Shown one piece after another: positions 9,358 to 41,603 of a DNA stretch of 41,603 nucleotides. Within the stretch, counting starts at the first letter, position 1. The number at the start of each line of letters is the position of its first letter. The translations under genes were made by a program, and so were the position numbers. Under the pieces are notes generated by a model. It worked only from the letters and a program-made list of their open reading frames with translations, did no database searches and was not told where the DNA came from. The DNA comes from Chloroflexota bacterium (GTDB taxonomy: Bacteria; Chloroflexota; Limnocylindria; QHBO01), in the NCBI GenBank assembly GCA_005879775.1, contig VBJX01000001.1, positions 12,671 through 54,273 on the forward strand. Reading direction: 5' to 3'.

Positions 9358-11616
9358 ATGACCTTCGATCGCGTGGCCATCGTTGAGGCAGCCCTGGACG
9401 CTTCGCTGGAGCAGGCTGCCGCCCCGGCCGCGCGCCTGGCGCCCGACGCGCCACTCCGCGACGGGAGCAGCCTCACCGCCCGCAAGGCGCTCGAGCTCTT
9501 CGAGGACCAGGTCACCTCTCGCCAGCTCGACGTGGCCGCCAGAGAGCTGAAGAAGGAGAACCGCTCTTTCTACACCATCGGCAGCGCCGGACACGAGAAC
9601 AACGTGGTGCTGGGCGCCCAGCTGCGCATCACCGATCCCGCGTTCCTGCACTACCGGTCCGGTGCCTTCATGATGGCCCGCGCTCGCCAGCTGCCGGGGA
9701 CCACCCCGGCCTTCGACACGCTGCTCGGAATCGTGGCCAGCAGCGAGGATCCGATCGCGCAGGGACGTCACAAGGTATGGGGCAGCCGGCCGCTCTGGGT
9801 GCCTCCCCAGACCTCGACCATCGCCAGCCATCTCCCCAAGGCGATGGGCCTGGCGTTCAGCCTGGCGCGGGCGCGGCGGCTGGGCGTGGCGATCGACCTG
9901 CCTGACGACGCGATCGTGGTCTGCTCGTTCGGCGACGCCAGCGTCAACCACGCCACCGCCCTGTCGGCGATCAACACCGCCCGCTACGCCGTCCGCATCG
10001 GGCTCCCCATGCCGATCCTGTTCCTCTGCGAGGACAACGAGACCGGGATCAGCGTTCCGACTCCCGAGGGCTGGATCGCCGGCACCTTCTCGCAGATGGA
10101 GCACCTGCGCTACGACCTCGCCGACGGCGAGATCGACGAGGTCTGGGATACGGTCAGCGAGGCGGTGCGCTTCGTGCGCGGCGCCCGCCGGCCCGCGTTC
10201 CTGCATCTGCGGACGGTGCGCCTGTGGGGCCATGCCGGCAGCGACGCCGAGACGAGCTACCGGTCGGCGGCCGAGATCGCCGCCATCGAGGCGCGTGACC
10301 CGCTGGTGCGCAACGCCCGGCGCCTGATCGAAACGGGGGCCGCCACGGCCGAAGAGATCGCTGCTCTCCTGGAGGAGACCCGCACGAGGGTTCGGGCAGC
10401 CGCGGAGGAGGCGACCCATCGCCCGCGGCTGTCGACCACCGAGGAGGTGGTCGCTCCCCTCGCCCCATGGCACTCGGAGCGGGTCGCGGGCCGCGCGGCG
10501 CGGCCGGTCCTTGACCCCGCAGCCCGGCGCGAGCTCTTCGACGGCACGCTTCCCGAGGAGGTGCCCGGCCCGAACGCACGCACCCTGGCCGGCTGCCTGA
10601 ACGCGGCCATGGCCGATGAGCTGGCGCGCCGGCCGGAGCTGATCGTGTTCGGCGAGGACGTGGGCCGTAAGGGCGGCGTCTACAACGTCACCAACGGCCT
10701 GCAGCGCCGATTCGGAGTCGGGCGGGTCTTCGACACCCTGCTCGACGAGACGAGCATCCTGGGTATCGCGCAGGGTGCGGCCCACATCGGGATGCTGCCG
10801 ATGCCAGAGATTCAGTACCTGGCCTACCTGCACAACGCCCTTGACCAGCTGCGCGGCGAGGCAGCGACCCTCCAGTTCTTCAGCTCGGGCCAGTTCCGCA
10901 ACCCGATGGTGGTGCGCGTCCCAGGGCTTGCCTATCAGAAGGGCTTCGGAGGCCACTTCCACAACGACAACAGCGTTGGGGCGCTGCGGGACATCCCGGG
11001 CCTGATCCTGGCCGTCCCGGCCCGCGGCGACGATGCGGCACGCATGCTGCGCGGGGCGATCGCGGCAGCCGCGGAAGAAGGGCGGGTGGTGGTCTTCCTG
11101 GAGCCGATCGCGCTCTACCACGAGAAGGACCTGTACGCCGATGGGGACGGCGGCTGGCTGACGGAGTACCCCGCTCCGCCATCGACGTTGCTGCCGGGGC
11201 AGATCGGCGTCTACGCGCCGCCCGATACCGAGCCGGCGGACGTGATGATCGTCAGCTATGCGAACGGGTTGCGCCTCTCGCTGCAGGCCGCGCGGCGTCT
11301 GCGCGAGAACCACGGGATCAGTGTCGAGGTGCTCGACCTGCGCTGGCTGAGCCCGCTCCCCTTCGAGGCGATCCGCGAGCACGCCGCCGTCACCGGCTCC
11401 GTGCTGATCGTCGACGAGTGCCGCCGAACGGGCGGCGGGGTGGCCGATGCGCTGGTGGCCGACCTCGCCGAGGCAGGCATCGGGCATCGGCTTGCCTCGA
11501 TCCGAGCGGTCGACAGCTTCGTGCCGCTGGGAAGCGCCGCGAACGCCGTGCTGGTGGGGACCGACCAGATCGTGGCCTCGGCCTTGACTGCCGTGACCGG
11601 GCTCGCTCGGACATGA
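9358..11616 (+). CDS. fused alpha/beta E1 component of a 2-oxoacid dehydrogenase (ThDP-dependent)
   Basis: The N-terminal half resembles E1-alpha, with a ThDP motif (SFGDASVNHA...LFLCEDNETGIS). The C-terminal half resembles E1-beta/transketolase-Pyr plus a C-terminal domain (VFGEDVGRKGGVYNVTNGL...VFDTLLDETSILG...VEVLDLRWLSPLP). It is one uninterrupted 752-aa frame. Confidence 0.9.
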   Translation: MTFDRVAIVEAALDASLEQAAAPAARLAPDAPLRDGSSLTARKALELFEDQVTSRQLDVAARELKKENRSFYTIGSAGHENNVVLGAQLRITDPAFLHYRSGAFMMARARQLPGTTPAFDTLLGIVASSEDPIAQGRHKVWGSRPLWVPPQTSTIASHLPKAMGLAFSLARARRLGVAIDLPDDAIVVCSFGDASVNHATALSAINTARYAVRIGLPMPILFLCEDNETGISVPTPEGWIAGTFSQMEHLRYDLADGEIDEVWDTVSEAVRFVRGARRPAFLHLRTVRLWGHAGSDAETSYRSAAEIAAIEARDPLVRNARRLIETGAATAEEIAALLEETRTRVRAAAEEATHRPRLSTTEEVVAPLAPWHSERVAGRAARPVLDPAARRELFDGTLPEEVPGPNARTLAGCLNAAMADELARRPELIVFGEDVGRKGGVYNVTNGLQRRFGVGRVFDTLLDETSILGIAQGAAHIGMLPMPEIQYLAYLHNALDQLRGEAATLQFFSSGQFRNPMVVRVPGLAYQKGFGGHFHNDNSVGALRDIPGLILAVPARGDDAARMLRGAIAAAAEEGRVVVFLEPIALYHEKDLYADGDGGWLTEYPAPPSTLLPGQIGVYAPPDTEPADVMIVSYANGLRLSLQAARRLRENHGISVEVLDLRWLSPLPFEAIREHAAVTGSVLIVDECRRTGGGVADALVADLAEAGIGHRLASIRAVDSFVPLGSAANAVLVGTDQIVASALTAVTGLART

Positions 11617-12632
11617 CCGATCGCGCCGTCCTGGCCTGTCCCGGGCGCGGCTCCTATTCCTCGACCTCGCTTGGCTCCCTGCCGGACAACCATCCATGGG
11701 TCGTCCGCGCCGAACAGCTGCGCGCCGAGTACAAGCTCGAGCCGCTCCTCTCCCTCGACCAGTCCCCGCGCTTCGACCCGGCGCGCCACCTGCAGCCGGT
11801 CAATGCCTCGCCGCTCATCTTCCTGGTGTCGCTCATCGATGCGGAGGCAGCTGCCCATGACTACGACATCAGCGCGGTGATCGGCAACTCGCTGGGCTGG
11901 TACACGGCCCTGGCCGTGACCGGAGCGCTCGCCTTCGACGACGCCTTTCGCCTCGTCCAGGAGATGTCGATCCTGCAGCAGGAACCACTCCCGAAGGGCG
12001 GCCCGGGGGGCCAGGTCATCTACCCACTGACCGATGCGGCCTGGCGGCCCGACCCGCGGCTCCGCGCCGCGATCAGTGCGGTGCTCGAGGCCCCCAGCCG
12101 CAACGGGGACGGCCACGTCCACGAGAGCATCGACCTGGGCGGCTATGCGGTCCTGGCCGGCGACGAGGCCGGCGTGGCGCGGCTGCTGAACGGCCTCACA
12201 CCCGTCCGCGTCGGCGAGCGGCTCTTCCCGCTGCGCCTGTCGCAGCACGGCCCGTACCACACGCCGCTCGTCGCCCACGTGGCGCGCGCGGCCAGGAAGC
12301 GCCTCGGAGGGCTCGGCTGGCGAGCGCCATCGGCCACCATGGTCGACGGCCGTGGGGCGCGCTGGACGCCGCTCTCCACCGATCCCGCTGCGCTGCGTGA
12401 CTACACGCTCGGGCAGCAGGTGACCACCCCATACCGATTCGCGCTGAGCGTGCACGTCGCGCTCCGCGAGGACGCGCCCGACGTCCTCCTCCTCCCCGGA
12501 CCGGGCAATTCGCTGGGAGGGATCTGCGGGCAGCTGGTCGTGGCCGAGGGCTATCGCGGCGTCCGATCCCGCGAGGAGTTCGAGGCGGCGCAGCGCTCGG
12601 AGGCACCGATCGTCCTGAGCATGCGGCGCTGA
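11613..12632 (+). CDS. FabD-like acyltransferase (malonyl-CoA:ACP transacylase superfamily), atypical
   Basis: LACPGRGSY (cf. FabD FPGQGSQ), the nucleophile elbow GNSLGWYTA (cf. GHSLGEYSA) and the His motif GPYHTPLV (cf. FHSPLM). Its ATG 11613 overlaps the E1 stop as ATGA. Confidence 0.8.
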   Translation: MTDRAVLACPGRGSYSSTSLGSLPDNHPWVVRAEQLRAEYKLEPLLSLDQSPRFDPARHLQPVNASPLIFLVSLIDAEAAAHDYDISAVIGNSLGWYTALAVTGALAFDDAFRLVQEMSILQQEPLPKGGPGGQVIYPLTDAAWRPDPRLRAAISAVLEAPSRNGDGHVHESIDLGGYAVLAGDEAGVARLLNGLTPVRVGERLFPLRLSQHGPYHTPLVAHVARAARKRLGGLGWRAPSATMVDGRGARWTPLSTDPAALRDYTLGQQVTTPYRFALSVHVALREDAPDVLLLPGPGNSLGGICGQLVVAEGYRGVRSREEFEAAQRSEAPIVLSMRR

Positions 12633-20342: not shown

Positions 20343-21233
20343 TCAGTCGCGGTGGCGGAAGGCCTGGACCGCGAAGGCCAGGAAGACGACCCCGACTGCC
20401 AGCAGGATGAGCGCCTCGACCAGGATCGGCAGCGGGTTTCCGAAAAGGGTCAGTCCGAGCTTGTCGAGCGCGGCGTTCGGCACGCCGGCGCCGCCAAGGA
20501 CGACCCGTCGGATCGGGTCGATCCCGTAGCTGGCGATGTCGAGGCGGGTCAGCACCGTCATCCAGGCCGGCAGGCCCGACATGGGGAAGAGCGCGCCGGA
20601 GAGGAAGAAGATCGGCATCATCAGGAAGTTCATCACCATCTGGAAGCCCTGCATCGACTTCAGGCGGGCCGCGATCACCACCCCCAGCGCCGAGAGGGTG
20701 AAGGCCAGCAGGAAGACGAGCGGCACCAGCTCGATGATGCTCAGGAGGGTGAGCTTGACGCCGATGACGGGCGCCAGGACCAGCAGGATCAGCCCCTGGA
20801 CCATGGCCTGGGTGGCGCCTCCGAGGGCCTTGCCGATGGCCACCGCCGACCGATCGATGGGCGCCACCAGGATCTCCTTGAGGAAGCCGAATTCGCGGTC
20901 CCACACGATCGACATGGCGCCGAACATGGCGGTGAAGAGGACCGTCATGCTGATGACGCCGGGGAAGATGAACTGGGTATAGGTGAGCCCGCCGGAGGTG
21001 CCGGCGAAGCCTCCGCCCAGCGCCGAGCTGAGCCCGGTGCCGAAGATGAGCAGGTAGAGGAGCGGCTGGGCCAGCGAGGCGACGAGCCTGGTCCGATCCC
21101 TGACGTACCGCACCACGTCGCGGTACCAGATGATGTAGATCGCGCGCAGCGTGGCGCGGCCCACCCGGGGCCGTCGCGTCCCGGTTTCGCTCAGGCCGGC
21201 CCGCTGGCCGAGCAGCTGATCCTGTGTCGTCAT
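20343..21233 (-). CDS. ABC-2 type transporter permease (DrrB-like)
   Basis: Six-TM ABC-2 permease (IYIIWYRDVVRYVRDRTRLVASLAQPLLYLLIFG...). ATG 21233 overlaps the ATPase stop as ATGA (21230-21233). The track ORF extends to 21254. Confidence 0.9.
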   Translation of the reverse strand: MTTQDQLLGQRAGLSETGTRRPRVGRATLRAIYIIWYRDVVRYVRDRTRLVASLAQPLLYLLIFGTGLSSALGGGFAGTSGGLTYTQFIFPGVISMTVLFTAMFGAMSIVWDREFGFLKEILVAPIDRSAVAIGKALGGATQAMVQGLILLVLAPVIGVKLTLLSIIELVPLVFLLAFTLSALGVVIAARLKSMQGFQMVMNFLMMPIFFLSGALFPMSGLPAWMTVLTRLDIASYGIDPIRRVVLGGAGVPNAALDKLGLTLFGNPLPILVEALILLAVGVVFLAFAVQAFRHRD

Positions 21234-22222
21234 CGGCGTCCACCTCTTCCCCACATGCGGCCCATCATCCGCAGTTGATCCTTGGAGCTTGACTCTTCCT
21301 CACGGATGGCGTGTCCGGTGAGCTTGATGAACACGTCGTCCAGGCTTGGCCGGTGGAACGAGACCGAGGTCACCGGCACGCTCAGCTCGCGCACGAGCTG
21401 CGGGACGAAGCCGGCGCCATCGGCCACCTCGACCCGGACCGTTCCATTGTCGATCTGGGGCTCGAGGCTGAAGACCCGCCCGAGCTCTGCGGCCGCGGTC
21501 GCGCTGTCGGCGCTCGAGAAGGTGACGATGTCGCCACCGACCATCGCCTTGAGCTCATCGGGCGTGCCCAGTGCCACGATCTTGCCGCCGTCGATGATCG
21601 CGATCCGATCGCAGAACTCCGCCTCGTCCATGTAGTGGGTGGTCATGAAGATGGTGATCCCCGCTCGGCGGCGGAGCTCCTGGAGATAGCTCCAGATGTG
21701 GCGGCGTGTCTGCGGGTCGAGGCCCAGCGTCGGCTCGTCCAGGAAGAGGACGTGCGGGGTGTGGAGTACGCCACGCGCGATCTCGAGCCGCCGGCGCATA
21801 CCGCCCGAGAAGGTGCGTACCTGCGAGCCGGCCCGATCGGTCAGCTCGACCATCTCGAGCACCTCGTCGATCCGCTCCTTGCGCTGGGTGGCAGGCACGT
21901 CGTAGATGAAGGCGTGGAACTCCAGGTTCTGGCGCGCGGTCAGCTGGTCGTCGAGCGAGGGGTCCTGGAAGACGAGCCCGATGTTTGCGCGCACCTCGTC
22001 CGGATGCGCCACCACGTCCAGCCCGGCCACCGTGGCCCGTCCGGCGCTCGGCAGGAGGAGCGTGCAGAAGACGTTGATGGTCGTCGACTTGCCGGCCCCG
22101 TTGGGACCCAGGAAGCCGAAGACCTCGCCCGCCTTGACCTCCAGGTCGATCCCCTTGACCGCCTCGACCTCGCCGTAGCTTTTTACCAGCTGCTCAGCGG
22201 TGATGACCGCGTCGCCGGTCAC
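21230..22222 (-). CDS. ABC transporter ATP-binding protein (DrrA-like)
   Basis: Walker A GPNGAGKST, signature FSGGMRRRLEIARGV, Walker B LFLDEPTLGLD. Its GTG start overlaps the padR stop as GTGA (22219-22222). Confidence 0.9.
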   Translation of the reverse strand: MTGDAVITAEQLVKSYGEVEAVKGIDLEVKAGEVFGFLGPNGAGKSTTINVFCTLLLPSAGRATVAGLDVVAHPDEVRANIGLVFQDPSLDDQLTARQNLEFHAFIYDVPATQRKERIDEVLEMVELTDRAGSQVRTFSGGMRRRLEIARGVLHTPHVLFLDEPTLGLDPQTRRHIWSYLQELRRRAGITIFMTTHYMDEAEFCDRIAIIDGGKIVALGTPDELKAMVGGDIVTFSSADSATAAAELGRVFSLEPQIDNGTVRVEVADGAGFVPQLVRELSVPVTSVSFHRPSLDDVFIKLTGHAIREEESSSKDQLRMMGRMWGRGGRR

Positions 22223-31973: not shown

Positions 31974-32812
31974 TGGGCAGCTCGCTGGGCGGGTCGCGCC
32001 TCCTGCGCTGGCTGCTGCCAGCGTTCACCGGGCTGGTGGTCGCGTTCCTCTTCGCGCCCATCGTGGTGATGATCATCTTCAGCTTCAACAACCCGCGCGG
32101 CCATCAGAACATCACCTGGCAGGGATTCACCCTGGACAACTACCTGAACGTCTGGAGCCGCCCGGACATCACCGACCCGATGGTCACCAGCCTCACGATC
32201 GCCATCGTCTCGACGGTGGTGGCGACCATCTTCGGCACCCTCATCGCCCTCTCGCTGACCCGCTACGAGTTCCGCGGGCGGGGGCTCATGAACCTGCTCA
32301 TCTTCATCCCCATGACCGCCCCGGAGATCATCCTGGGCGCCTCGCTCCTGACCCTGTGGGTGGCGCTGGGGACCGGGCGCGGGCTGCCGACCATCCTGGT
32401 GGCCCACATCATGTTCAACATCAGCTACGTTGTCGTCACCGTGCGGGCCCGATTGATCGGCTTCAATCGGTCCCTCGAGGAGGCCGGCATGGACCTGTAT
32501 GCCAACGAGCGGACCACCTTCTGGAGGGTCACCTTCCCGCTCATCTTCCCCGGCATTCTGGCCGCGGCCCTGCTCGCCTTCGCGCTGTCGATCGACGACT
32601 ACGTGATCACCCTGTTCAGCGCCGGCCACACGGTGACCTTCCCGCTGTGGGTCTACGGCGCCAGCCGGATCGGGATCCCACCCGAGGTAAACGCACTCGG
32701 GACGGTCTTCTTCCTGATCGCCTTCGTCTTCATCGCCGTCCAGATCTGGGCGCAGCGCCGGGGAGGCCGCGAGGCTGAGGGCCCGGCTGTGGCAACGGTC
32801 GCCAGCCGATGA
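31973..32812 (+). CDS. ABC transporter permease, PotC-like (second copy)
   Basis: EAA loop LEEAGMDLYANERTTFWRVTFPLIFPGILAA. Its ATG overlaps the upstream TGA by 1 nt (TGATG). Confidence 0.9.
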   Translation: MGSSLGGSRLLRWLLPAFTGLVVAFLFAPIVVMIIFSFNNPRGHQNITWQGFTLDNYLNVWSRPDITDPMVTSLTIAIVSTVVATIFGTLIALSLTRYEFRGRGLMNLLIFIPMTAPEIILGASLLTLWVALGTGRGLPTILVAHIMFNISYVVVTVRARLIGFNRSLEEAGMDLYANERTTFWRVTFPLIFPGILAAALLAFALSIDDYVITLFSAGHTVTFPLWVYGASRIGIPPEVNALGTVFFLIAFVFIAVQIWAQRRGGREAEGPAVATVASR

Positions 32813-34105
32813 GCGAGCGTACCTCCGGACTGACTGCCGGCCCGCTGCTCGACGAGCGCGCTGACGACAGCGCGGTGTGGCTTGCCCGCCGGGCAGGGGT
32901 GCCCGCCGTCTGGTCGCGCTACACCGATCTGGTGGTCGAGCGCGGCTTCGGCTCGTGGATCGAGACGATCGATGGGGAGCGGTACCTGGACTACACCTGC
33001 GGCATCGCGGTCACCAACACCGGCCACGCCCATCCGCGGGTCGCCACGGCCATCGCGGAGCAGGCGGCGAAGATCATCCACGCCCAGCAGAACATCCTCT
33101 ACCACAAGCCTGGGCTGGAGCTCCACGAGCGGCTGCCCCGCACCTTCCCCGGGCTGGCCGGGGGTGCGACGGCCGCGCTCTTCCTTTCGAACTCCGGAGC
33201 GGAGGCGATCGAGGCGGCCGTCAAGCTGGCCAAGTACGCCACCCGCCGGCCGGGGATCATCGGCTTCCGCGGGGGGTTCCACGGTCGCACCCACGGCGCG
33301 ATGGCCCTCACCAGCTCAGGGATCAAGTATCGCGGCCACTACGAGCCGCTCCTCGGCGGGATCCACTTCGCCCCGTACCCGTACGTCCTGCGCAACCCGA
33401 CCGGACAGACCGACGAGGCTGCCCTGGCCTTCAGCCTGGCGGGGATCGAGGAGATCTTCGCCACCCTCATCTACCCCGATGACGTAGCCGCATTCCTGGT
33501 GGAGCCGATCCTGGGCGAGGGCGGCTACGTGGTCCCACCCGATGGCTTCCTCCCCGCCCTGCGCGAGATCGCCGATCGCCACGGGATCCTGCTCGTCGCC
33601 GACGAGGTGCAGACCCCTGGTCATGGCCAAGGGGATCGCATCGGGGATGCCCCTCTCCGGGATCATGGCTTCGCCCGAGCTCCTGGCTCGATTCGGTCCC
33701 GGGGCGCACGGCGGCACCTACGGCGGCAACGCGGTCGCGTGCGCGGCTGCGGTCGCCACGCTCGACGTCTTCGAGTCGGAGGGCCTCGTCGAGAATTCCC
33801 GCCGCCAGGGTGAGCGACTCATGGCCGGACTGCGCGAGGCGGCGGCAGGCCATCCTCTCGTCGCCGAGGTGCGCGGACGCGGCCTGATGATCGGGCTCGA
33901 GTTCGCCGAAGGCCCTGACCTCAAGCCTCGCCCGGACCTGGCCAAGGCACTCCTCCACGAGGCCTTCGAGCGGAAACTCCTGCTCCTGACCTGCGGGACC
34001 TATGGCCACGTCGTGCGCGTCATCCCGCCGCTGGTGACGACCGATGACGAAGTCGACCTCGCCATGCGGACAATCGGTGACTCACTCGAGGCGATCGGCG
34101 CCTAG
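32809..34105 (+). pseudogene. class-III (GabT/putrescine-type) PLP aminotransferase, disrupted by an internal deletion plus frameshift
   Basis: Track ORF 32809..33813 is good up to ...HGILLVADEVQT (about 33615), then becomes Arg/Gly junk. Track ORF 33542..34105, in the +1 frame, becomes good from PLVMAKGIASGMPLSGI...GGTYGGNAVACAAA... to the C-terminus. The usual ~19-20 residues between ADEVQ and the Lys motif (GFGRTG...) are absent in every frame. Its ATG overlaps the potC-like stop as ATGA (32809-32812). Confidence 0.75.
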
Positions 34106-34324: not shown

Positions 34325-34885
34325 TCAGCCACCCTCCCGGGCCAGGCGCCGGTACTGCGAGCCGAACCAGAGGAGCGGGTCTCCAGCCTCGTCGTAGCCG
34401 GCGGCCACGATCTCCCCGATGAAGATCACGTGGTCCCCGCCGGGGTGGGTCTCCGTGATCCGGCAGTCGAAGAAGGCGATCGCGCCGTCCAGGATCGGTG
34501 ACCCGGTCTCCGCCTCGTGCCACGGCGCATCGCAGAAGCGCTGCAGCTTGGCCGCGCTGGTCGGTTGGGCGAAACACTCGGCCAGGGCCTGCTGCTCCCC
34601 GGCCAGGACGCTGATCGCGAAGGAGTGGCTGCCAACGATCGCCTTGTGCGTCTCGCTCGACTCGTTGATGGCCACCAGGAGGAGCGGCGGGTCGATGCTC
34701 ACGGAGGCGACCGCGTTGGCGGTCATCCCGGCCAGGAGCGGCCCGTATCGGGCGGCGACGACCGTCACCCCGGTGGCGAAGCGGGCCATCATCGCCCGCA
34801 GCCAGCGGCGCTGCTCGTCGGTCATGGGGGCCACGCTGCCTCCGGCCGGCGCGCGCTCGATCCGCTCAGTCGTCATGCAGCCCAA
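34325..34885 (-). CDS. flavin reductase family protein (HpaC/NtaB-like small component)
   Basis: FATGVTVVAARYGPLLAGMTANAVASVSIDPPLLLVAINESSETHKAI...FAISVLAGEQ...FFDCRITETHPGGDHVIFIGEIV is the flavin_reduct domain pattern. TTG 34885 directly abuts the upstream TGA. ATG 34876 is an alternative start. Confidence 0.85.
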   Translation of the reverse strand: MGCMTTERIERAPAGGSVAPMTDEQRRWLRAMMARFATGVTVVAARYGPLLAGMTANAVASVSIDPPLLLVAINESSETHKAIVGSHSFAISVLAGEQQALAECFAQPTSAAKLQRFCDAPWHEAETGSPILDGAIAFFDCRITETHPGGDHVIFIGEIVAAGYDEAGDPLLWFGSQYRRLAREGG

Positions 34886-35200
34886 TCATCGGTAGCGCTC
34901 GAGCTTCTCGATGATGGCGTTGGCGGTCGCCCACTCCTCCGCGCTCGGCTCGTCGCCGCGCCGCAGGTGGATGAGGGGCACGGCGTTCCACGATGGTCCG
35001 TCCTCGCGCGGGATGTGCACCCCCAGGTCGCCCCGGTCGAGCGCGGCCACAATCGTCGCGCCCCGCTCTCCCCCACGCGCCAGTGACCGATCGAGCGAGT
35101 GCGCGAACTCCTCCACCGAGCCGAACTCGCGGCTGATGCGCATCGTGATCAGCCCGGCGGCCGGCGGCAGGAGACGCTCCTGCTCGTCCTCTACTGCCAC
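34886..35200 (-). CDS. hypothetical 104-aa acidic cytosolic protein
   Basis: GTG start overlapping the upstream gene by 10 nt (GTGGCAGTAG). It has a strong G/C third-position bias. Sequence: ...MRISREFGSVEEFAHSLDRSLARGGERGATIVAALDRGDLGVHIPREDGPSWNAVPLIHLRRGDEPSAEEWATANAIIEKLERYR. No family recognised. ATG 35143 is an alternative start. Confidence 0.55.
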   Translation of the reverse strand: MAVEDEQERLLPPAAGLITMRISREFGSVEEFAHSLDRSLARGGERGATIVAALDRGDLGVHIPREDGPSWNAVPLIHLRRGDEPSAEEWATANAIIEKLERYR

Positions 35201-35568
35201 CCGAGGCCCCCAAAGAGCCAGCCGAAGAAGGTGAGGCTGCCCAGCACGGCAAAGCCAACCAGCGCGATCAGCAGGATGAAGCCGATGGCGCTGGCCCAGG
35301 CCGGCACGGCCGCCTGGGGCGGCCCGATCGAGCCCTGCGTCAGCCAGATCGCGAGCGCGTCACCGTCGATCCGCAGCTCCACGTCGTCATCCAGCGGGAC
35401 CACGACCAGCCGCTCCCGCTCGCCGCTTCCCTTCTCACCGGTGAGCAGGGCACGTGACGCCTCCTCCTGGCGCACCAGGACGGCGTGGTTCCCTACCGCG
35501 TTGGTGAGCGGCAGCGCCTTGAGGCGGCCAGTCACCCCGATCGGGATGGGAGCCCGCTCGTCGTCCAC
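35191..35568 (-). CDS. hypothetical 125-aa tail-anchored membrane protein
   Basis: GTG 35568 lies 19 nt after the LLM stop. A soluble N-domain (DDERAPIPIGVTGRLKALPLTNAVGNHAVLVRQEE...LVVVPLDDDVELRIDGDALAIWL) is followed by one C-terminal TM helix (ASAIGFILLIALVGFAVLGSLTFFGWLFGG). The upstream 120 codons of track ORF 35191..35928 overlap the LLM gene out of frame and are junk. Confidence 0.55.
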   Translation of the reverse strand: MDDERAPIPIGVTGRLKALPLTNAVGNHAVLVRQEEASRALLTGEKGSGERERLVVVPLDDDVELRIDGDALAIWLTQGSIGPPQAAVPAWASAIGFILLIALVGFAVLGSLTFFGWLFGGLGWQ

Positions 35569-35587
35569 GAACCGAGAATAACAGCCG

Positions 35588-36502
35588 TCAGGCGTCGAGC
35601 AGCGCGAGCGCGGGCTCCAGGGCGGCGATCGTGTCGACGGTGATCGGGTCCAGGACGAGCTGCACGTGAGACACGCCCTCGGCCGCGAAGGCCCGCAGCG
35701 CAGCGGCCAGGATGGCCGGCTCGCCGGAGATCGGATCGGCCTCGGCCTCGGCCAAATCGCCGAGCTGTCGACCCTGGGCGCCGGGGAAGGAGACGAACAG
35801 GGCAAGGGTGCGCGCCACCTTCGCGGGGTCCCGGCCGGCTGCCCTGCAGGCGACGTCCACCTTCTCGCGCAGCGGCCGATACCCGTCAGCCGTGTTGCCG
35901 AACCAGGTGAACCAGGCATTCCAGGCATCCACGTGGGGCAGGGTGATCGACAGCATCCGCTCCCCCTCCGAGCCGACCAGCAGCGGCGGACCAGCGGGAC
36001 GCGGCCCGCGGGGGACGAGCTCGCAGTCAGCCAGGTCGAAGAAGGTCCCGTGGAAGTCGCAGCGACCCTCGCGCAGGAGCGTGCGGATGATGGTGAACGC
36101 CTCTTCGAAACGGCTCACCCGCCGGTCGAAGGGGAAGCCGAAGGCCCGGTACTCGACCTCGTTCCAACCCGCCCCCAGCCCCAGCACCAGGCGCCCGCCA
36201 CTGATCTCGTCGAGGGTGGCAGCCTGCTTGGCGATCATCGCCGGGTTGTGGAAGCTCGTCGAAGCCACCAATGGCCCGATCTCCACCTGCTGCGTTACGG
36301 CAGCCAGCGCCGCGAGCGTCGTCCACGCCTCCCACGGGCCTCGCGCCGGTTGGCCGTCGCCACGGTAGAGGAGGTGGTCGCCGACCCAGACCGAATCCAG
36401 CCCGATGCCCTCGGCGGTCTCGGCCATCCAGCGCAGCTCAGGCCACCGCACCACCCGCTCGACCTCGGGGAGCTGGACGCCCACCTTCAGGGGCCGCGCC
36501 AC
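35588..36502 (-). CDS. LLM-class (luciferase-like) flavin/F420-dependent oxidoreductase
   Basis: From GTG 36502, with GGAGAG upstream: ARPLKVGVQLPEVERVVRWPELRWMAETAEGIGLDSVWVGDHLLYR...GPLVASTSFHNPAMIAKQAATLDEISGGRLVLGLGAGWNEVEYRAFGFPFDRRVSRFEEA is the classic LLM TIM-barrel pattern. The N-terminal 350 codons of track ORF 35588..37552 are out-of-frame read-through. Confidence 0.85.
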   Translation of the reverse strand: MARPLKVGVQLPEVERVVRWPELRWMAETAEGIGLDSVWVGDHLLYRGDGQPARGPWEAWTTLAALAAVTQQVEIGPLVASTSFHNPAMIAKQAATLDEISGGRLVLGLGAGWNEVEYRAFGFPFDRRVSRFEEAFTIIRTLLREGRCDFHGTFFDLADCELVPRGPRPAGPPLLVGSEGERMLSITLPHVDAWNAWFTWFGNTADGYRPLREKVDVACRAAGRDPAKVARTLALFVSFPGAQGRQLGDLAEAEADPISGEPAILAAALRAFAAEGVSHVQLVLDPITVDTIAALEPALALLDA

Positions 36503-36504
36503 CC

Positions 36505-37368
36505 CTACAGGTCTCTCCGCTCGAGGCTGAAGATCGCCAGCCCGATGGCCCCGAGGTTCCAGGCCAGCGCCCAGGCGAGGTAGATGAGGGGCGGCGGCGC
36601 CGGCGCGAAGAATGGGAACGCCGCCAGTCCCGGACCGGCCCGCGCACCGGCGGCCAGCACCGCGCCAGGCTCGAGGCTGTAGAGCGCGCCGCGCCACAGG
36701 CCATCGCTCGGAATGACGAGGCGCCCGATGGTGCCCGCCATGGCGGTCGCCGGATCCCCCAGCGCGGTGCCGATGCCGCCCACCACTCCGGCCAGCCAGG
36801 CAAGACCGAACAACAGCATCGCGACGATCCCGGTGGTGACGGGCGCCAGCCGCGTGCTGAGCAAGAGTGTCAATCCCAGCAAGGTGAGACCCATGGTGGC
36901 CAGGTAGAGCGCCGCCTCGAGCGGATGCGGCGGCCGATAGCCGGTCGTCAGCTGCGCCACCGCCAGCTCGAGGGTCGTCGCCAACCCGGCATAGACCACG
37001 ATCACCAGGCCCAGGCCCAGCCACTTCCCGAGGAGCACGTCTCGGCGCCGCACGGGTCGTGCCAGCACGGCCAGGGCCTCGCCGCTCTCCAGCTCCCCGG
37101 CGACGGATGGCGCCGCGGCGAAGACCGCCGACAGGGCGAGCACGAAGCTGAACATGAACATGACCAGGATCAGCAGCTGCGACGCGATCAGCTGGATCTC
37201 CGCCGGCTTCAGCGCACCGTTGCGGCTCGCCGGCAGGTTCCCGAGCTGGCTGTAGCCCCAGGCGGTGAGCGCCACGGCCACCACCGAGAGGCCGAAGAGG
37301 GCCAGCAGCAGCCGGCGTCGGAGCCCCTCGCGCAGCGTCACCTGCATCACGATCCAGGCGGTCCTCAC
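36505..37368 (-). CDS. ABC-2 family transporter permease (NosY/ABC2_membrane_2-like)
   Basis: From GTG 37368 (GTGA overlap with the ATPase stop): RTAWIVMQVTLREGLRRRLLLALFGLSVVAV..., a six-TM profile. ATG 37347 is an alternative start. The upstream part of track ORF 36505..37974 is junk. Confidence 0.8.
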   Translation of the reverse strand: MRTAWIVMQVTLREGLRRRLLLALFGLSVVAVALTAWGYSQLGNLPASRNGALKPAEIQLIASQLLILVMFMFSFVLALSAVFAAAPSVAGELESGEALAVLARPVRRRDVLLGKWLGLGLVIVVYAGLATTLELAVAQLTTGYRPPHPLEAALYLATMGLTLLGLTLLLSTRLAPVTTGIVAMLLFGLAWLAGVVGGIGTALGDPATAMAGTIGRLVIPSDGLWRGALYSLEPGAVLAAGARAGPGLAAFPFFAPAPPPLIYLAWALAWNLGAIGLAIFSLERRDL

Positions 37369-38345
37369 GAGCTGCCGTCCTCCGCTGGTCTCCCGTCCGC
37401 CGGCGGTCCCGCCACCAGCTGGCGGAAGCGCTCCTCCAGGCTCGGATGCAACAGCTCGACGCCGTAGACCTGTCCCCCGCCCTGGACGATGGCTGCCACC
37501 ATGCCGGGGATCGCCTCCTCCACGGCACCAGCGATGCGCAGCCAGGGCCCATCGGAGATCACCTCGTGATGCTCTCGCAACCTGGCCATGATTTCGTCCG
37601 GAATCCCCGTGGCCCGGATCCGCACCCCACCCGGCGTCAGCAGCTCGTCGAGCGTGCCGCTGGCCTGCAGCCGGCCGCGATGGATGATCGCCACCTGGTC
37701 GCACACCTGCTCCACCTCTGAGAGCTGGTGCGAGTTGAGCAGGACGGTGGTGCCCGCATCGCGCAGGCCGCGGATGATCTCGCGCAGCTCCAGCCTGCCA
37801 ATCGGGTCGAGCGCGGTGGTCGGCTCGTCCAGGATCACCAGGGCTGGAGTGCCGATCAGGGCCACGGCCAGGCCCAGGCGCTGCTGCATCCCCTTCGAGA
37901 AGGTCGCGACCCGGCTCTCGGCTCGGCCCTGGAGATCGGCGTTGAGGAGGGCGGTGTCGATCTCGCCCCCCCATCGGTCTCGCGGGATCCCTCCCAGGCG
38001 CAGGTGGAGACCCAGCACCTCGCGTGCCTTCAGCCAGCCTGGATAGCGGAACAGCTCGGGCAGGTAGCCGACCCGCTGTCGCGCCGCTGCGCGCTCGATT
38101 GGCTCACCCAGCAGGCGCCCACTTCCGCCATCGGCGTGCGTCAGGCCCAGGAGGACCTTCACCGCCGTGGTCTTGCCCGCCCCGTTGGGGCCGAGCAGGC
38201 CGAAGACGTGACCGCTTTGAACCTGCAGCTCGAGACCGTCCAGGGCGACGGTCTGGCCGTAGCGCTTGGTGAGGCCGTGCGCCTCGACCGCCAGGCCGTT
38301 CGGTGCCACGGGGAGGATCGGAGCCGATGCCATCGCCATGCCCAT
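37365..38345 (-). CDS. ABC transporter ATP-binding protein
   Basis: Walker A GPNGAGKTT, signature FSKGMQQRLGLAVAL, Walker B LILDEPTTALD, plus a C-terminal accessory domain. The start is uncertain: ATG 38345, 38339 or 38333, a downstream GTG, or the track's TTG 38438. Confidence 0.9.
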   Translation of the reverse strand: MGMAMASAPILPVAPNGLAVEAHGLTKRYGQTVALDGLELQVQSGHVFGLLGPNGAGKTTAVKVLLGLTHADGGSGRLLGEPIERAAARQRVGYLPELFRYPGWLKAREVLGLHLRLGGIPRDRWGGEIDTALLNADLQGRAESRVATFSKGMQQRLGLAVALIGTPALVILDEPTTALDPIGRLELREIIRGLRDAGTTVLLNSHQLSEVEQVCDQVAIIHRGRLQASGTLDELLTPGGVRIRATGIPDEIMARLREHHEVISDGPWLRIAGAVEEAIPGMVAAIVQGGGQVYGVELLHPSLEERFRQLVAGPPADGRPAEDGSS

Positions 38346-38632
38346 CGCAGCCGATTGTGCCAGCGGCCCGCGGACGACGTCGCCGCCTGGCGATCGATCG
38401 CGATAAGTGCCGGCCAATTCGCTGGTAAGCAGGTTCAACGTAGTGTTCAGGTGATCTGATCAGTCCGCGGATGCGGATGCGCCGCGCCGGCGACCGGCAT
38501 GAGCCGTCGGGAGCACGAGGACCCCCTCCCCGGGTGAGTGGAGGGCGCTCGAGTGGCCCAATTGGGAGGCCCCGAATCCTCAGGTCGGGCTGGCCAAGTC
38601 CCAGGCGGCGGCGCTTTGCCAGCGAGCTGCGG

Positions 38633-40663
38633 TCAGGCGACGCGCTTGCGCTTCTTGCTCACGTAGTCGACGAGGACGTACTCACCGAGGTGCTCCGGCT
38701 CTACGTAGAAGGCCCGCCCGCGGTTGATGCGGCTCATCAGGTCCACGAACTCCGACAGGTAGCGCGAGCGCTCGAGCATGAAGGTGTTGATCACGATCCC
38801 GTCGCGCGTGGCGCGCCCGACCTCGCGCAGGGTCGACTGCATGGTGCGCATGGTCGGCGGATAGGCGAACTCGACCTGCCCGTTGGCGATGTGCGCAGTC
38901 GGCTCGCCGTCGGTGATGACCACGATCTCCTTGTTGCCGCCGCGACGTCCAAGCAGTCCGCGCGCGATGATCAGGGCGTGCTGCAGGTTGGTCCCGTACT
39001 CGAACTCGTACGGGGAGAGGGTTGCGATCGCCTCCGGCGCAATCTGCCGCGCGTAGTACGCGAAGCCGACCACGTAGAGCCGGTCGCGGGGGTACTTGGT
39101 GGCGATCAGCGTGTGCAACGCCATCGCCACCCGCTTGGCCGCGGTCGAGCACCCGCGCAGCAGCATGGAGCGGCTCATGTCGAGGAGCAGCACGGTGCTG
39201 CTCACCGTGGTCTCCTCGGAGCGGTGCACCTCGAAGTCCGCGGGACCGATGGCGACCGGAAGGCCCGGCCCCGTGCGCGTCATGGCGTTGAGGAGGGTCC
39301 GATTGATGTCGACGGCGAAGGGATCGCCGAATTCGTACGGCTTGGTCTCGTCAGTGCGCTCGCCGCCCGTGCCGGCCTCTGGCAGCGCGTGGCTGCCGAG
39401 TGACTCGCGCCGGAGGCGGCTGAAGATGTCGGCCAGCGCCTGCGTTCCGAGCCGGCGAGCAGCACGTGCGGTCAGCTCGAGCCTCCCTCCATCGCGTTCC
39501 AGGTAGCCCGCTTCCTCGAGGGCGCGCGTCAGCTCGCGCAGCTGTGCGAGGTCGTCGGTGGCGTCGTCCCCGGCAAGGTCGCGGAGCAGGTCGGGGTCGA
39601 TGCGGCTCAGGCCATCCGGATCGCGCGCGCCGATCAGCTGCTCCTCCATCGCGTCGTAGCGCTGCTGACGGTCGATGGCGGCCATCGCCTCCGGCAGTCC
39701 CATCGGCTCGTCGCCCTCGAACGGGTACGGCTCGCCGAACGCCTGGTCGGGACGCAGCGCCTGGAGGTTGCCTGCCAGGCGAGCCATATCCCACCGCAAG
39801 CGGTCGTCCCGCAGGAGCTCGTCCATCATCCCCTGCAGCTCCTCGCGCATCTCCGGGGAGAGGGAGGCAAGCAGCGAGGCCATCTGTGAGGCCTGTCGGT
39901 GGAGATGGTCGATCAGCTGGTCGACGTTTTCGATGCCCGGCGGGAAATAGTGGCCGTGCTGGGTCATGAAGGCCTCGAAGTCGGCCTGGGTATCGGTGCC
40001 TTCCGCGTGCTTCTCCAGCAGCTGATTGAGGTCGCGCACCATCTCGCGCACGCCGGTGAGGTCCTCCGGCGTCACGCGCTGCACGCCCTCCTTCAGGCCC
40101 TGGAAGAAGTTCTGCAAGACCTGCTGGCGGAGCTCATCGGAGAGGGCATTGAAGGCGTCGCGGGCGTCGGGGTCCATGAATTCGTAGTCGCGCAACCCGT
40201 TGATTCGGCCGGCGAGGTTCGGGGGCAGGGCGTCGAGCCTATCGCGCCGCTGCTGGGCGGTGCGCCTCAGGACCTGCTCGCCCAGCCTGGCCTGGTCCTG
40301 GGCCTCGCCCGGAGGTGCGTCGAGCGATGCCTGCTCCGCGTCGTGCAGGCGCCGCTCGATGCCCGCGCGCTCCTGCTCGATGATCCGTGCCAATCGCTCC
40401 TCGAGGTCGCTGAGCACCGTGTCGAGGTTTGAGCGCTCCAGCTCAGCTTGTCGGCGCCGCCGCAGCTGCTCGAGGATGCGGCGAAGCCCTGGAATGTCGC
40501 CGCCACGCGCGCCGCGCATGCCGCGCTGCATGAGTCGCTGCAAGGCGCGTCGAACATCGCCCTCGGCCAGCACGTCCTCGCTCAGCGCGCGCAGCACGTC
40601 ATCGGCGTCGAAGGGCGGAAGCTGCTGCGAGCCATCCCAGCGCGAATACCGGTACGTGCTCAC
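38633..40663 (-). CDS. von Willebrand factor A (VWA) domain protein, BchD/CoxE-like partner of the upstream AAA+ ATPase
   Basis: N-terminal MSTYRYSRWDGSQQLPPFDADDV, then a long charged helical middle. The C-terminal VWA has an intact MIDAS (LLLDMSRSM ... VVITDGEPT). Confidence 0.85.
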   Translation of the reverse strand: MSTYRYSRWDGSQQLPPFDADDVLRALSEDVLAEGDVRRALQRLMQRGMRGARGGDIPGLRRILEQLRRRRQAELERSNLDTVLSDLEERLARIIEQERAGIERRLHDAEQASLDAPPGEAQDQARLGEQVLRRTAQQRRDRLDALPPNLAGRINGLRDYEFMDPDARDAFNALSDELRQQVLQNFFQGLKEGVQRVTPEDLTGVREMVRDLNQLLEKHAEGTDTQADFEAFMTQHGHYFPPGIENVDQLIDHLHRQASQMASLLASLSPEMREELQGMMDELLRDDRLRWDMARLAGNLQALRPDQAFGEPYPFEGDEPMGLPEAMAAIDRQQRYDAMEEQLIGARDPDGLSRIDPDLLRDLAGDDATDDLAQLRELTRALEEAGYLERDGGRLELTARAARRLGTQALADIFSRLRRESLGSHALPEAGTGGERTDETKPYEFGDPFAVDINRTLLNAMTRTGPGLPVAIGPADFEVHRSEETTVSSTVLLLDMSRSMLLRGCSTAAKRVAMALHTLIATKYPRDRLYVVGFAYYARQIAPEAIATLSPYEFEYGTNLQHALIIARGLLGRRGGNKEIVVITDGEPTAHIANGQVEFAYPPTMRTMQSTLREVGRATRDGIVINTFMLERSRYLSEFVDLMSRINRGRAFYVEPEHLGEYVLVDYVSKKRKRVA

Positions 40664-40702: not shown

Positions 40703-41602
40703 CTAGCGGGCGTAGCGCACCGCGCCGCCGCGGCGCTCCTTGTTGAGACGACGGTTGAGATGCAGGCCCTCGAGGACGAACTCCACCCCACTCGCCAGCG
40801 AGGCCGGCGACTCCCCCACATCGAGGCGGCCGATGACCCGGCGCAGCTCGGCGATCTCGCTCACCAGCTTTTCGTGGGCGCTGCTCGGCACGTACTCCCC
40901 GACCTCCGCGGCGGCGCCCGCCTCGAACCGCTCGATCAGCGGGGCGAGCTCGGACAACGCGAAGCGGCGGTTGAAGACGTTCAAGGTGGCCCGCGCCAGG
41001 AGCTTCTCCACCACGCGGTCCTCGCGCGCCTCGTCGCCGAGCGTCTCGAGCTCGATCTTGCCAGCCGTGGAAGCCACGACCGCCGGCAGGTCGCTGATGC
41101 GGGGCGCGGCGGTGGGCTCGCTGAGGCGCACCGCGCGCTTGAGGGCGGTCGCCGTCAGCGTTTCGGCGTTGTTGATCGTGACCCGCACCGACACGCCCGA
41201 CCGCTGGCTGACCTCCGAGGAGCGCCTCGCCAGCTGCGAGAGCTCTGCCACGATCTCCTTCATGAAGCCTGGCACGTGGACCGCGATCGCGTCGGGTGCA
41301 TCGGCGTCGAAGGTGGTCGCCTCCTGGTCCATGATCGCGATCTCGGTGGCAGCCTCCTCGGGGTAGTGCGTCCGGATCTGCGCGCCGAAGCGGTCCTTGA
41401 GCGGGGTGATAATCCGTCCGCGGCTGGTGTAGTCCTCCGGGTTGGCGCTGGCGATGACGAACAGGTCCAGGTTGAGGCGGACTCGGTAGCCGCGAATCTG
41501 GACGTCGCGCTCCTCCATCACGTTCAGCAGACCCACCTGGATGCGCTCGGCGAGGTCCGGGAGCTCGTTGATGGCGAAGATGCCGCGATGCGTGCGCGGC
41601 AG
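40703..41602 (-). CDS. AAA+ ATPase of the Mg-chelatase ChlI/BchI-like clade; N-terminus beyond the window
   Basis: The frame stays open to the window edge: LPRTHRGIFAINELPDLAERIQVGLLNVMEERDVQIRGYRVRLNLDLFVIASANPEDYTSRGRIITPLKDRFG shows a Walker B/sensor region and BchI-like inserts. The track ORF 40703..41536 starts at an internal Met. Confidence 0.85.
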   Translation of the reverse strand: MPRTHRGIFAINELPDLAERIQVGLLNVMEERDVQIRGYRVRLNLDLFVIASANPEDYTSRGRIITPLKDRFGAQIRTHYPEEAATEIAIMDQEATTFDADAPDAIAVHVPGFMKEIVAELSQLARRSSEVSQRSGVSVRVTINNAETLTATALKRAVRLSEPTAAPRISDLPAVVASTAGKIELETLGDEAREDRVVEKLLARATLNVFNRRFALSELAPLIERFEAGAAAEVGEYVPSSAHEKLVSEIAELRRVIGRLDVGESPASLASGVEFVLEGLHLNRRLNKERRGGAVRYAR

Positions 41603-41603
41603 C

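Follow-up and report, generated by a model that had tools for sequence, protein, structure and literature searches.

An ancestral LLM–p125–p104–flavin reductase core and an inserted ABC-2 cassette form a composite gene cluster in Limnocylindria

Limnocylindria are abundant, uncultured Chloroflexota of soil and freshwater. We analyzed a stretch of 41,603 nucleotides (nt) from one such bacterium (GenBank assembly GCA_005879775.1, contig VBJX01000001.1, positions 12,671 to 54,273 of the forward strand; hereafter the window), with the focus on six open reading frames (ORFs) that all lie on the minus strand and nearly abut, their junctions ranging from -10 to +19 nt as read from the sequence. In the direction of transcription, the six encode an ABC transporter ATPase, an ABC-2 permease, an oxidoreductase of the luciferase-like monooxygenase (LLM) family, two small proteins of 125 and 104 amino acids (aa), here called p125 and p104, and a flavin reductase (Table 1). 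A first-pass annotation, made from the letters and the translations, had described these ORFs and each of their junctions, and had read them as one oxidise-and-export or membrane-associated modification module; with respect to the ORFs and junctions, both the coordinates and the coding signal agree with its description.

The GTG start codon of the permease is located inside a GTGA (37368–37365) that it has in common with the stop codon of the ATPase, giving an overlap of 4 nt. The permease stop codon TAG (36507–36505) is followed by GG and then by the LLM GTG at 36502; the LLM stop codon TGA (35590–35588) is separated by 19 nt from the p125 GTG at 35568; and the GTG of p104 at 35200 produces a 10-nt overlap with p125. 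At the last junction, the TGA of p104 (34888–34886) directly adjoins a TTG at 34885. This abutment, on which the annotation had remarked, is there in the sequence, but comparison with the reductase of a close relative (locus L087), which has the N-terminus MATDRIERAPAG, makes it more likely that the reductase starts at the ATG at 34876 (MTTERIERAPAG, 183 aa), with a gap of 9 nt to p104 instead of 0. Reading through the TGA to yield a p104–reductase fusion was considered and rejected; the two genes share a frame here, but the corresponding junctions in relatives (-4, -1 and +4 nt) place them in other frames, and p104 always terminates in ERYR. In all six frames, the GC content is 0.87–0.94 at third codon positions (GC3) and 0.47–0.53 at second positions (GC2), in DNA of 69% GC, and an independent, albeit crude, GC-frame gene call returned the same six coordinates. 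A terminator scan detected no terminator-like site on the minus strand between 34000 and 38800, and the scans for sigma-70 promoters and terminators were uninformative, with one weak, intragenic promoter-like site.

Table 1. Features of the six-gene cluster and its upstream context (window positions).
Feature	Coordinates	Strand	Evidence and remarks
MoxR/ChlI-like AAA+ ATPase, upstream context	40703..41603	-	orthologue domains and synteny; truncated by window end
Rv0959-like VWA protein, upstream context	38633..40663	-	VWA_2 9e-8
Operator-like imperfect inverted repeat ACTGATCAGATCACCTGAACACT	38442..38464	-	arms 9-5-9; sequence conservation
ABC transporter ATPase, DrrA/NodI type	37365..38345	-	start ATG; ABC_tran 3e-25
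ABC-2 permease (ABC2_membrane_2)	36505..37368	-	start GTG; PF12679 1e-13, full length
LLM TIM-barrel oxidoreductase	35588..36502	-	start GTG at 36502; PF00296 1.3e-50, residues 19-238
p125, tail-anchored, 125 aa	35191..35568	-	start GTG at 35568
p104, soluble, 104 aa	34886..35200	-	start GTG at 35200
NAD(P)H:flavin reductase (Flavin_Reduct split-barrel)	34325..34885	-	PF01613 2.4e-44

Neither p125 nor p104 has a match in Pfam or NCBIfam, and many long spurious ORFs are found on both strands of the region, which might be taken to mean that the two small ORFs are themselves spurious open frames of the kind common in DNA of 69% GC. We give this reading practically no credence and regard it as already refuted. 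GC3 in the claimed frames is 0.89–0.90, the predicted folds are confident (see below), and both proteins have homologues in the hundreds, nearly all of constant length (149 for p104 and 352 for p125), with named sources that are Chloroflexota or Candidatus Limnocylindria metagenome-assembled genomes (MAGs). The alignments have a mean identity of roughly 70% and contain 26 invariant columns in p104 and 34 in p125. Median pairwise dN/dS ratios, computed from 80–82 orthologues, are 0.28 for p104 and 0.44 for p125, compared with 0.27 for the LLM and 0.29 for the reductase, all of these values being upper bounds since dS is probably underestimated at saturated GC3. As judged by the alignments and substitution ratios, both small ORFs are real genes under purifying selection; the annotation had made its idea hinge on such conservation and selection, and both were found.

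The coupling of the small genes to their neighbors is conserved as well. The start of p104 lies -10 to +11 nt from the stop of p125 in 80 of 81 loci, and the two genes overlap in 64 of the 81, with 38 of these overlaps being of the 4-nt ATGA/GTGA type. The gap between LLM and p125 has a median of 20 nt and is typically 19–21 nt, and the p104-to-reductase gap is -4 to +13 nt wherever these two genes are direct neighbors. The earlier description of the genes as co-directional and tightly coupled is thereby borne out, in the window and in its relatives.

To place the cluster in its wider context, we surveyed one genome per species, identified 130 genomes that encode p104, kept 80 loci (handles beginning with L) and mapped the window proteins onto them. 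Nearly all are from Limnocylindria and a few carry labels of other phyla. Six of the loci (L041, L042, L049, L060, L075 and L081) present a typical cluster, with p104 identities of 64–73%, in MAGs labeled Methylomirabilota, Zixiibacteriota or Steroidobacteraceae, and these contigs are probably mis-binned. The ancestral gene order is P-loop protein, MoxR/ChlI-like AAA, Rv0959-like VWA, LLM, p125, p104 and flavin reductase, often followed by a BFD-like [2Fe-2S]/SO_alpha_A3 protein and then by a convergent cluster with an aminotransferase and a pot transporter. The p125/p104 junction is the only one never broken (80 of 80 loci); the reductase is located 3' of p104 in 79 of 80, the contig of the remaining locus ending early; and the LLM gene directly precedes p125 in 71 of 77. 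The synteny of LLM and reductase genes elsewhere, which the annotation had left to be checked, is therefore confirmed. In the six loci where LLM is gone, the reductase is kept and the VWA gene adjoins p125. The gap left behind is short and contains a small antisense ORF in L015, L068 and L083, contains an APH-family kinase ORF in L037 (Pfam 1.7e-36), and is of similar size in L062 and L069. The antisense ORF (L015 9357–9599, L068 9307–9549 and L083 9308–9673, minus strand) is conserved and about 81 aa long, with a high GC3 of 0.86–0.89 and no Pfam match. We conclude that LLM–p125–p104–reductase is an ancestral, class-wide, translationally coupled core downstream of the AAA/VWA pair.

A co-directional M55 D-aminopeptidase gene (Pfam 7.5e-89) separates the p104 and reductase genes at 23 of 79 loci (L004, L008, L018, L021, L027, L030, L033–L035, L037, L043, L052, L056, L068, L069, L071–L073, L077, L079 and L081–L083); the encoded protein is DppA-like, about 280 aa long, and not found in the window. 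Directly after the reductase, 34 loci (L084 10076–10699 and 33 others; not the window) encode a product (about 205 aa) that carries SO_alpha_A3 and BFD-like [2Fe-2S] signatures (CxC...CxxC), which hints that the reductase feeds an iron-sulfur partner. On the upstream side, the AAA gene is syntenic in most loci, its full-length orthologue in L003 giving weak AAA_5, Sigma54_activat and Mg_chelatase matches, and the orthologues of the VWA protein carry precomputed Mb0984_helical and Rv0959_3rd matches. The gap from VWA to LLM is at most 30 nt in 28 of 60 loci. L005, L065, L089 and L093 have neither of the two genes, AAA or VWA, ahead of their intact core. The AAA–VWA genes are preceded by a gene for a conserved protein of about 300–320 aa that has no Pfam match but contains a Walker A motif, PQAGKTTTL (L084 456–1421 and 44 other loci); in L005, L065, L089 and L093, this gene directly precedes the LLM operon.

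The AAA–VWA arrangement resembles Rv0958/Rv0959 of Mycobacterium tuberculosis, a ChlI/MoxR-like AAA and VWA pair, in that the orthologues of the window's VWA protein match Rv0959_3rd and Mb0984_helical and follow a ChlI/MoxR-like AAA; it differs in its company, since homologues of p125 and p104 were found only at Limnocylindria-type loci. The portions of the literature naming Rv0958 or Rv0959 that were available to us hold nothing on the function of the pair, and literature searches on Rv0958/Rv0959 and on Limnocylindria turned up nothing on this cluster. The statement that the gene order is not that of a described cluster thus stands, with no characterized cluster or pathway found to match. 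A reading of the AAA, VWA and small proteins as anti-phage defense was dropped after PADLOC returned nothing relevant. Two further observations concern the window itself. The class-III aminotransferase gene at 32809–34105 (plus strand) is split into two overlapping frames (32809–33813 and 33542–34105), which cover positions 5–229 and 256–401 of Pfam Aminotran_3, and relatives have one intact gene of 434–450 aa; the split is a frameshift reflecting either a pseudogene or an assembly error. At 11613–12632 (plus strand), an ORF of 339 aa with a strong coding signal (GC3 0.89) and no Pfam family overlaps the preceding E1 dehydrogenase/transketolase-like gene by 4 nt.

The ABC-2 pair, in contrast to the small ORFs with their LLM and reductase neighbors, is present in a minority of loci only. 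VWA and LLM are both present in 60 loci, of which 7 have the ATPase and permease genes in between and 53 do not, and a related pair (56–57% identity) follows the reductase and the BFD-like gene in L057 and L060. In six of the seven genome loci, as well as in the metagenome locus L084, a TetR gene and a divergent gene for a 157-aa membrane protein directly precede the ABC genes. No TetR gene is present in the window, L070, L087 or L088, of which L087 and L088 are close relatives that share the window's arrangement. The ABC-carrying loci are the nearest relatives of the window by AAA and VWA identity (86–88%), arguing for a clade-specific insertion that fits one event in a sub-lineage. Varied cargo occupies the VWA/LLM junction in other species, including APH-like kinase ORFs, alpha/beta-hydrolase-like ORFs and an unassigned ORF of about 390 aa (the APH of L037 is named by a Pfam assignment, the others from reading the translations), so the junction behaves as an insertion hotspot. 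The window permease is 100% identical to a protein (P0280) on a 48.8-kb ENA contig, and its homologues at 50–54% identity are located behind ECF sigma and anti-sigma-like genes in unrelated surroundings. The best NCBIfam match of the ATPase is drrA, with 199 bits against a cutoff of 312. The layout is that of a TetR-regulated DrrAB-type ABC-2 efflux cassette, with a DrrA-like ATPase and an ABC-2 permease joined by a stop/start overlap and TetR directly upstream in seven related loci; the window pair differs in that it is without TetR and has the operator-like repeat of the LLM operon ahead of it. We conclude that the ABC pair is a later add-on, a drug-efflux-type cassette inserted at the VWA/LLM junction in one sub-lineage. 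The earlier view of the six genes as one module is not supported in evolutionary terms, given the absence of the pair from the locus in most species, its usual company of a TetR of its own and its position at a cargo-taking junction, and the term 'NosY-like' used for the exporter reduces to a Pfam/COG family label, as no nosZ, nosD or nosL neighbors are found in the window or the related loci surveyed. A second, unrelated pair of a DrrA-type ATPase (DrrA1-3_C domain) and an ABC-2 permease is encoded at 20343–22222 of the window (minus strand).

The VWA and ATPase genes are separated by a spacer of 287 nt (38346–38632), in which the 23-mer ACTGATCAGATCACCTGAACACT precedes the ATPase ATG by about 95 nt. 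The window contains no second match to it, 0.05 occurrences being expected by chance. With 0–5 mismatches, the same 23-mer is found 90–125 nt upstream of the LLM gene, and not of ABC genes, in L007, L051, L065, L042, L023, L076, L001, L030 and the metagenome locus L093; in L095, a near-identical strain of the window, it precedes the ABC genes. The arms of the repeat are near-perfect in L023, and in L076 a change in one arm is mirrored in the other (CAG/CTG to CGG/CCG). Since the repeat precedes LLM in relatives and the ABC genes here, the ABC pair appears to have been inserted downstream of the control region of the core. An Rfam scan of the operon and the spacer returned no family for the repeat, the only hit being a chance miRNA match well below threshold. 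An identical 23-mer is located about 35 nt upstream of a gene for a FAH-family-like hydrolase in L090 (8164–8186) and L091 (2764–2786, minus strand), the hydrolase being named from its translation and not from a Pfam scan. In L090, the hydrolase gene and a second LLM gene (36% identity) are direct neighbors and diverge from each other; in L091, the divergent neighbor of the hydrolase gene is cupin-cyclase-like, with a second LLM gene downstream of the latter. We infer that the repeat is a candidate operator of a small regulon, which would connect the operon with one or more further loci. A control region common to all six genes, and with it their joint transcription and regulation, is probable in this genome, and it is in this restricted form, for this genome, that the single-operon idea is favored by the position of the repeat.

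The structural model of p104 is well defined (predicted local distance difference test, pLDDT, 87; predicted template modeling score, pTM, 0.80), and a Foldseek search of the PDB yielded Fe/Mn superoxide dismutase (SOD) fold chains, matched in their C-terminal domain, for all 50 matches listed. These comprise 49 SOD structures and chain 8xzv_M of the spinach plastid RNA polymerase, with a best E-value of 4e-4, probabilities of 0.97–1.00 and TMq values of 0.45–0.67. At the sequence level the link is weak but consistent: Pfam Sod_Fe_C is weakly matched by 11 of 62 p104 family members (best E-value 0.008), and SODs account for 5 of the 14 best matches in a PDB sequence-profile search, aligned at SOD residues ~94–167. 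The segment common to p104 and SOD consists of the FGSxxxF helix and a three-stranded sheet. With a length of 104 aa, p104 does not contain the N-terminal helical hairpin domain of SOD that provides two His ligands, nor is this domain provided by the adjacent p125, which is all-beta in its model. In an HMMER alignment, the SOD ligand Asp (GID in 4br6) falls opposite a variable p104 position, His in the consensus and Arg80 in the window, and there is no conserved His four residues beyond, so that the ligands of the DxWEH motif are not kept. Owing to the missing N-domain and Asp/His ligands, p104 is not a canonical SOD. Conserved features of the family itself are the invariant C-terminus EKLERYR and residues His62, His78, Asp55, Asp58 and Asp67; p104 contains no cysteine. 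As judged by the model, p104 derives from the C-terminal domain of Fe/Mn-SOD by truncation and loss of the ligands; it is alike in its predicted fold and in the aligned FGSxxxF helix and following beta sheet, and different in lacking the N-terminal helical domain and the conserved Asp/His and in being coupled to a membrane-anchored partner. The plastid RNA polymerase chain exemplifies an SOD fold in the role of a structural subunit.

The AlphaFold model of p125 (pLDDT 81) comprises a seven-stranded beta domain (residues 8–76) and one long C-terminal helix (residues 90–121), with a strongly hydrophobic transmembrane segment at residues 89–121. Conservation is equal in this helix and in the beta domain (0.80 each), and 10 of the 33 transmembrane positions are invariant, which suggests that the helix makes specific contacts within the membrane and is not a mere anchor. 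Foldseek searches of the PDB and BFVD with p125 returned no match with an E-value below 0.05. An exhaustive hidden Markov model (HMM) search, in which the p125 profile was run against 1.84 billion representative proteins, gave only 39 matches, so p125 constitutes a narrow, lineage-specific family. Two apparent homologues (P0271 and P0279) were discarded as RTX and Ig-repeat giants matched by composition, and an apparent p125–reductase fusion of 279 aa (P0244) is a frameshifted read-through of three genes. Neither the species-genome scan nor the p125 HMM search found homologues of p125 or p104 outside Limnocylindria-type loci. The annotation had called both small proteins family-less and had proposed profile and Foldseek searches of them. 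Pfam and NCBIfam were blank for both; Foldseek connected p104 to the SOD C-domain fold, of which it is a divergent form, and left p125 without relatives outside its narrow family, so the label holds for p125 and not for p104.

The pairing of an LLM-domain oxygenase with a separate flavin reductase in one operon had been taken in the first-pass annotation as the architecture of a two-component flavin-dependent monooxygenase. Both components are present and co-occur in 71 of 77 loci. However, the four top NCBIfam matches of the LLM are to subfamilies linked to coenzyme F420, at scores that remain under the curated cutoffs (TIGR03560, 186.7 versus 231.4 bits; TIGR03619, 157.9 versus 166.9 bits; then 125 and 124 bits). 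Families dependent on flavin mononucleotide (FMN), namely RutA, SfnG and SsuD, score at most 75 bits (RutA 75, SsuD 58), all below their cutoffs, and the PDB sequence matches are a mixture of FMN and F420 enzymes. The cofactor may be either F420 or FMN, with the scores leaning towards F420, and this weakens the two-component reading, as do the loss of LLM in six lineages and the M55 gene between p104 and reductase in 23 of 79 loci; what stands of the claim is the presence of an LLM and a PF01613 reductase in the operon. F420-dependent LLM enzymes need no flavin reductase partner. The LLM thus resembles the F420-dependent TIGR03560 (Rv1855c) and TIGR03619 (Rv2161c) families, which are its best-scoring ones, and departs from them in its scores below the curated cutoffs and in being encoded together with a flavin reductase. 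The LLMs that depend on F420 belong to a single clade, whose ancestor used FMN (PMC6279831), and two LLM classification papers, that study being one of them, yielded no sequence motif that separates F420 from FMN enzymes. Some Chloroflexi make F420 and have numerous F420H2-dependent reductases (PMC8498797), and no F420 biosynthesis gene was present among the scanned window genes. For the reductase, the best NCBIfam matches, all under cutoffs, are FerA (119 bits), HpaC (113), HsaB (104) and RutF (104). The closest described parallel of the pairing is RutA/RutF of the pyrimidine utilization operon, likewise a TIM-barrel LLM and a small Flavin_Reduct protein in one operon; it differs in that the window scores (RutF 104, RutA 75 bits) are far below cutoffs, the LLM is closer to F420-linked families and dispensable in some lineages, and two conserved non-enzyme genes separate the two enzymes.

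Taken together, we propose that the six genes represent a composite operon, formed from a class-wide core and a later ABC cassette, in which the p125–p104 pair acts as a membrane adaptor for redox enzymes, a proposal that we hold to be moderately probable. In such an arrangement, p125 and p104 would be produced in constant proportion and assemble, on the cytoplasmic side of the membrane, into a complex that the conserved helix of p125 keeps in place, and the complex would serve as an adaptor or scaffold for the neighboring redox enzymes. The reductase would supply reduced flavin or electrons, in many relatives maybe to the adjacent BFD-like [2Fe-2S] protein, and the LLM, where present, would use reduced flavin or F420H2 on a small, probably hydrophobic, substrate. 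The ABC pair would be an add-on and not obligatory. Several points weigh against this proposal. The p125–p104 complex and its contacts with LLM or reductase are hypothetical, the repeat is a putative operator assigned from sequence conservation, and the LLM may use either of two cofactors. The core is itself not inviolate, as the six losses of LLM and the 23 M55 insertions demonstrate. Synteny alone is weak evidence of shared function, because gene order is broadly collinear across the class and the convergent aminotransferase–pot cluster is as conserved as the core. Finally, the occurrence of an ABC pair at two positions of the same cluster hints at more than a chance association.

The last of these points would favor the scheme of the original annotation, in which the product that a two-component, FMNH2-dependent LLM monooxygenase makes from its substrate is carried off by the ABC-2 exporter, with the small proteins in the role of carriers or of specificity factors. 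All junctions of at most 19 nt, the single conserved operator-like repeat ahead of the first gene, the RutA/RutF-type architecture of LLM and PF01613 reductase (RutF 104 bits), and the ABC genes found before LLM in seven genome loci and in L084, L087 and L088, or after the reductase in L057 and L060, are all in keeping with such a scheme. Yet the ABC pair is not at the locus in 53 of 60 informative species and is usually found behind its own TetR, the layout of a self-contained efflux cassette; the same junction takes up unrelated cargo, and distant ABC homologues reside in unrelated contexts. Moreover, the LLM scores highest against F420-linked subfamilies and is missing in six lineages, and p104, predicted to be a folded SOD-like domain without cysteine, is not an obvious carrier. 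An exporter-coupled scheme of this kind therefore appears unlikely to us.

A doubtful, if somewhat better placed, alternative is that the genes are neighbors without shared function, kept together by collinearity, with the LLM an independent F420 enzyme, the reductase a general flavin or ferric reductase, and p125/p104 working with AAA and VWA or alone. The equal conservation of the aminotransferase–pot block is what such an alternative would predict, and it would accommodate the M55 peptidase, APH and hydrolase genes inserted co-directionally between members, the intactness of the rest after LLM loss, the spacing of 30 nt or less from VWA to LLM that 28 of 60 loci show, the adjacency of VWA to p125 where LLM was lost, and the common use of F420 in Chloroflexi (PMC8498797). 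Set against it, start/stop coupling across LLM, p125, p104 and reductase in most species exceeds what collinearity requires, the repeat, which in several lineages is located between VWA and LLM, marks out a control region of its own for the core, and the core is intact without AAA and VWA in L005, L065, L089 and L093. In a third alternative, which we consider quite improbable, p125–p104 is a hitherto unrecognized, membrane-tethered, SOD-derived module in which p104 has rebuilt a metal or radical site from His62, His78, Asp55, Asp58 and Asp67, and which works with the FerA-like reductase, the BFD-like protein and perhaps the chelatase-like AAA/VWA pair in metal reduction and insertion or in the control of reactive oxygen. 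If true, the locus would encode a class-specific system for the reduction and insertion of iron or another metal, or for keeping in check the reactive oxygen to which free reduced flavin gives rise at the membrane.

The layout of LLM plus reductase and the TetR/ABC-2 cassette are both familiar; what is new is the class-specific p125–p104 pair embedded between the enzymes, and the locus holds one of the class-specific, strongly conserved gene pairs of Limnocylindria. For specialists the locus at present is no surprise, and it offers a well-defined target for expression and co-purification. It also illustrates that what reads as a tight operon in one genome can combine an ancient core with a recently inserted efflux cassette. 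The SOD C-domain fold predicted for p104, which lacks the ligands and is coupled to the tail-anchored p125, offers a first structural clue to one member of the orphan pair. If p125 and p104 organize flavin or F420 redox enzymes at the membrane, as proposed for the composite operon, the pair would represent a new accessory principle for LLM/flavin-reductase systems.

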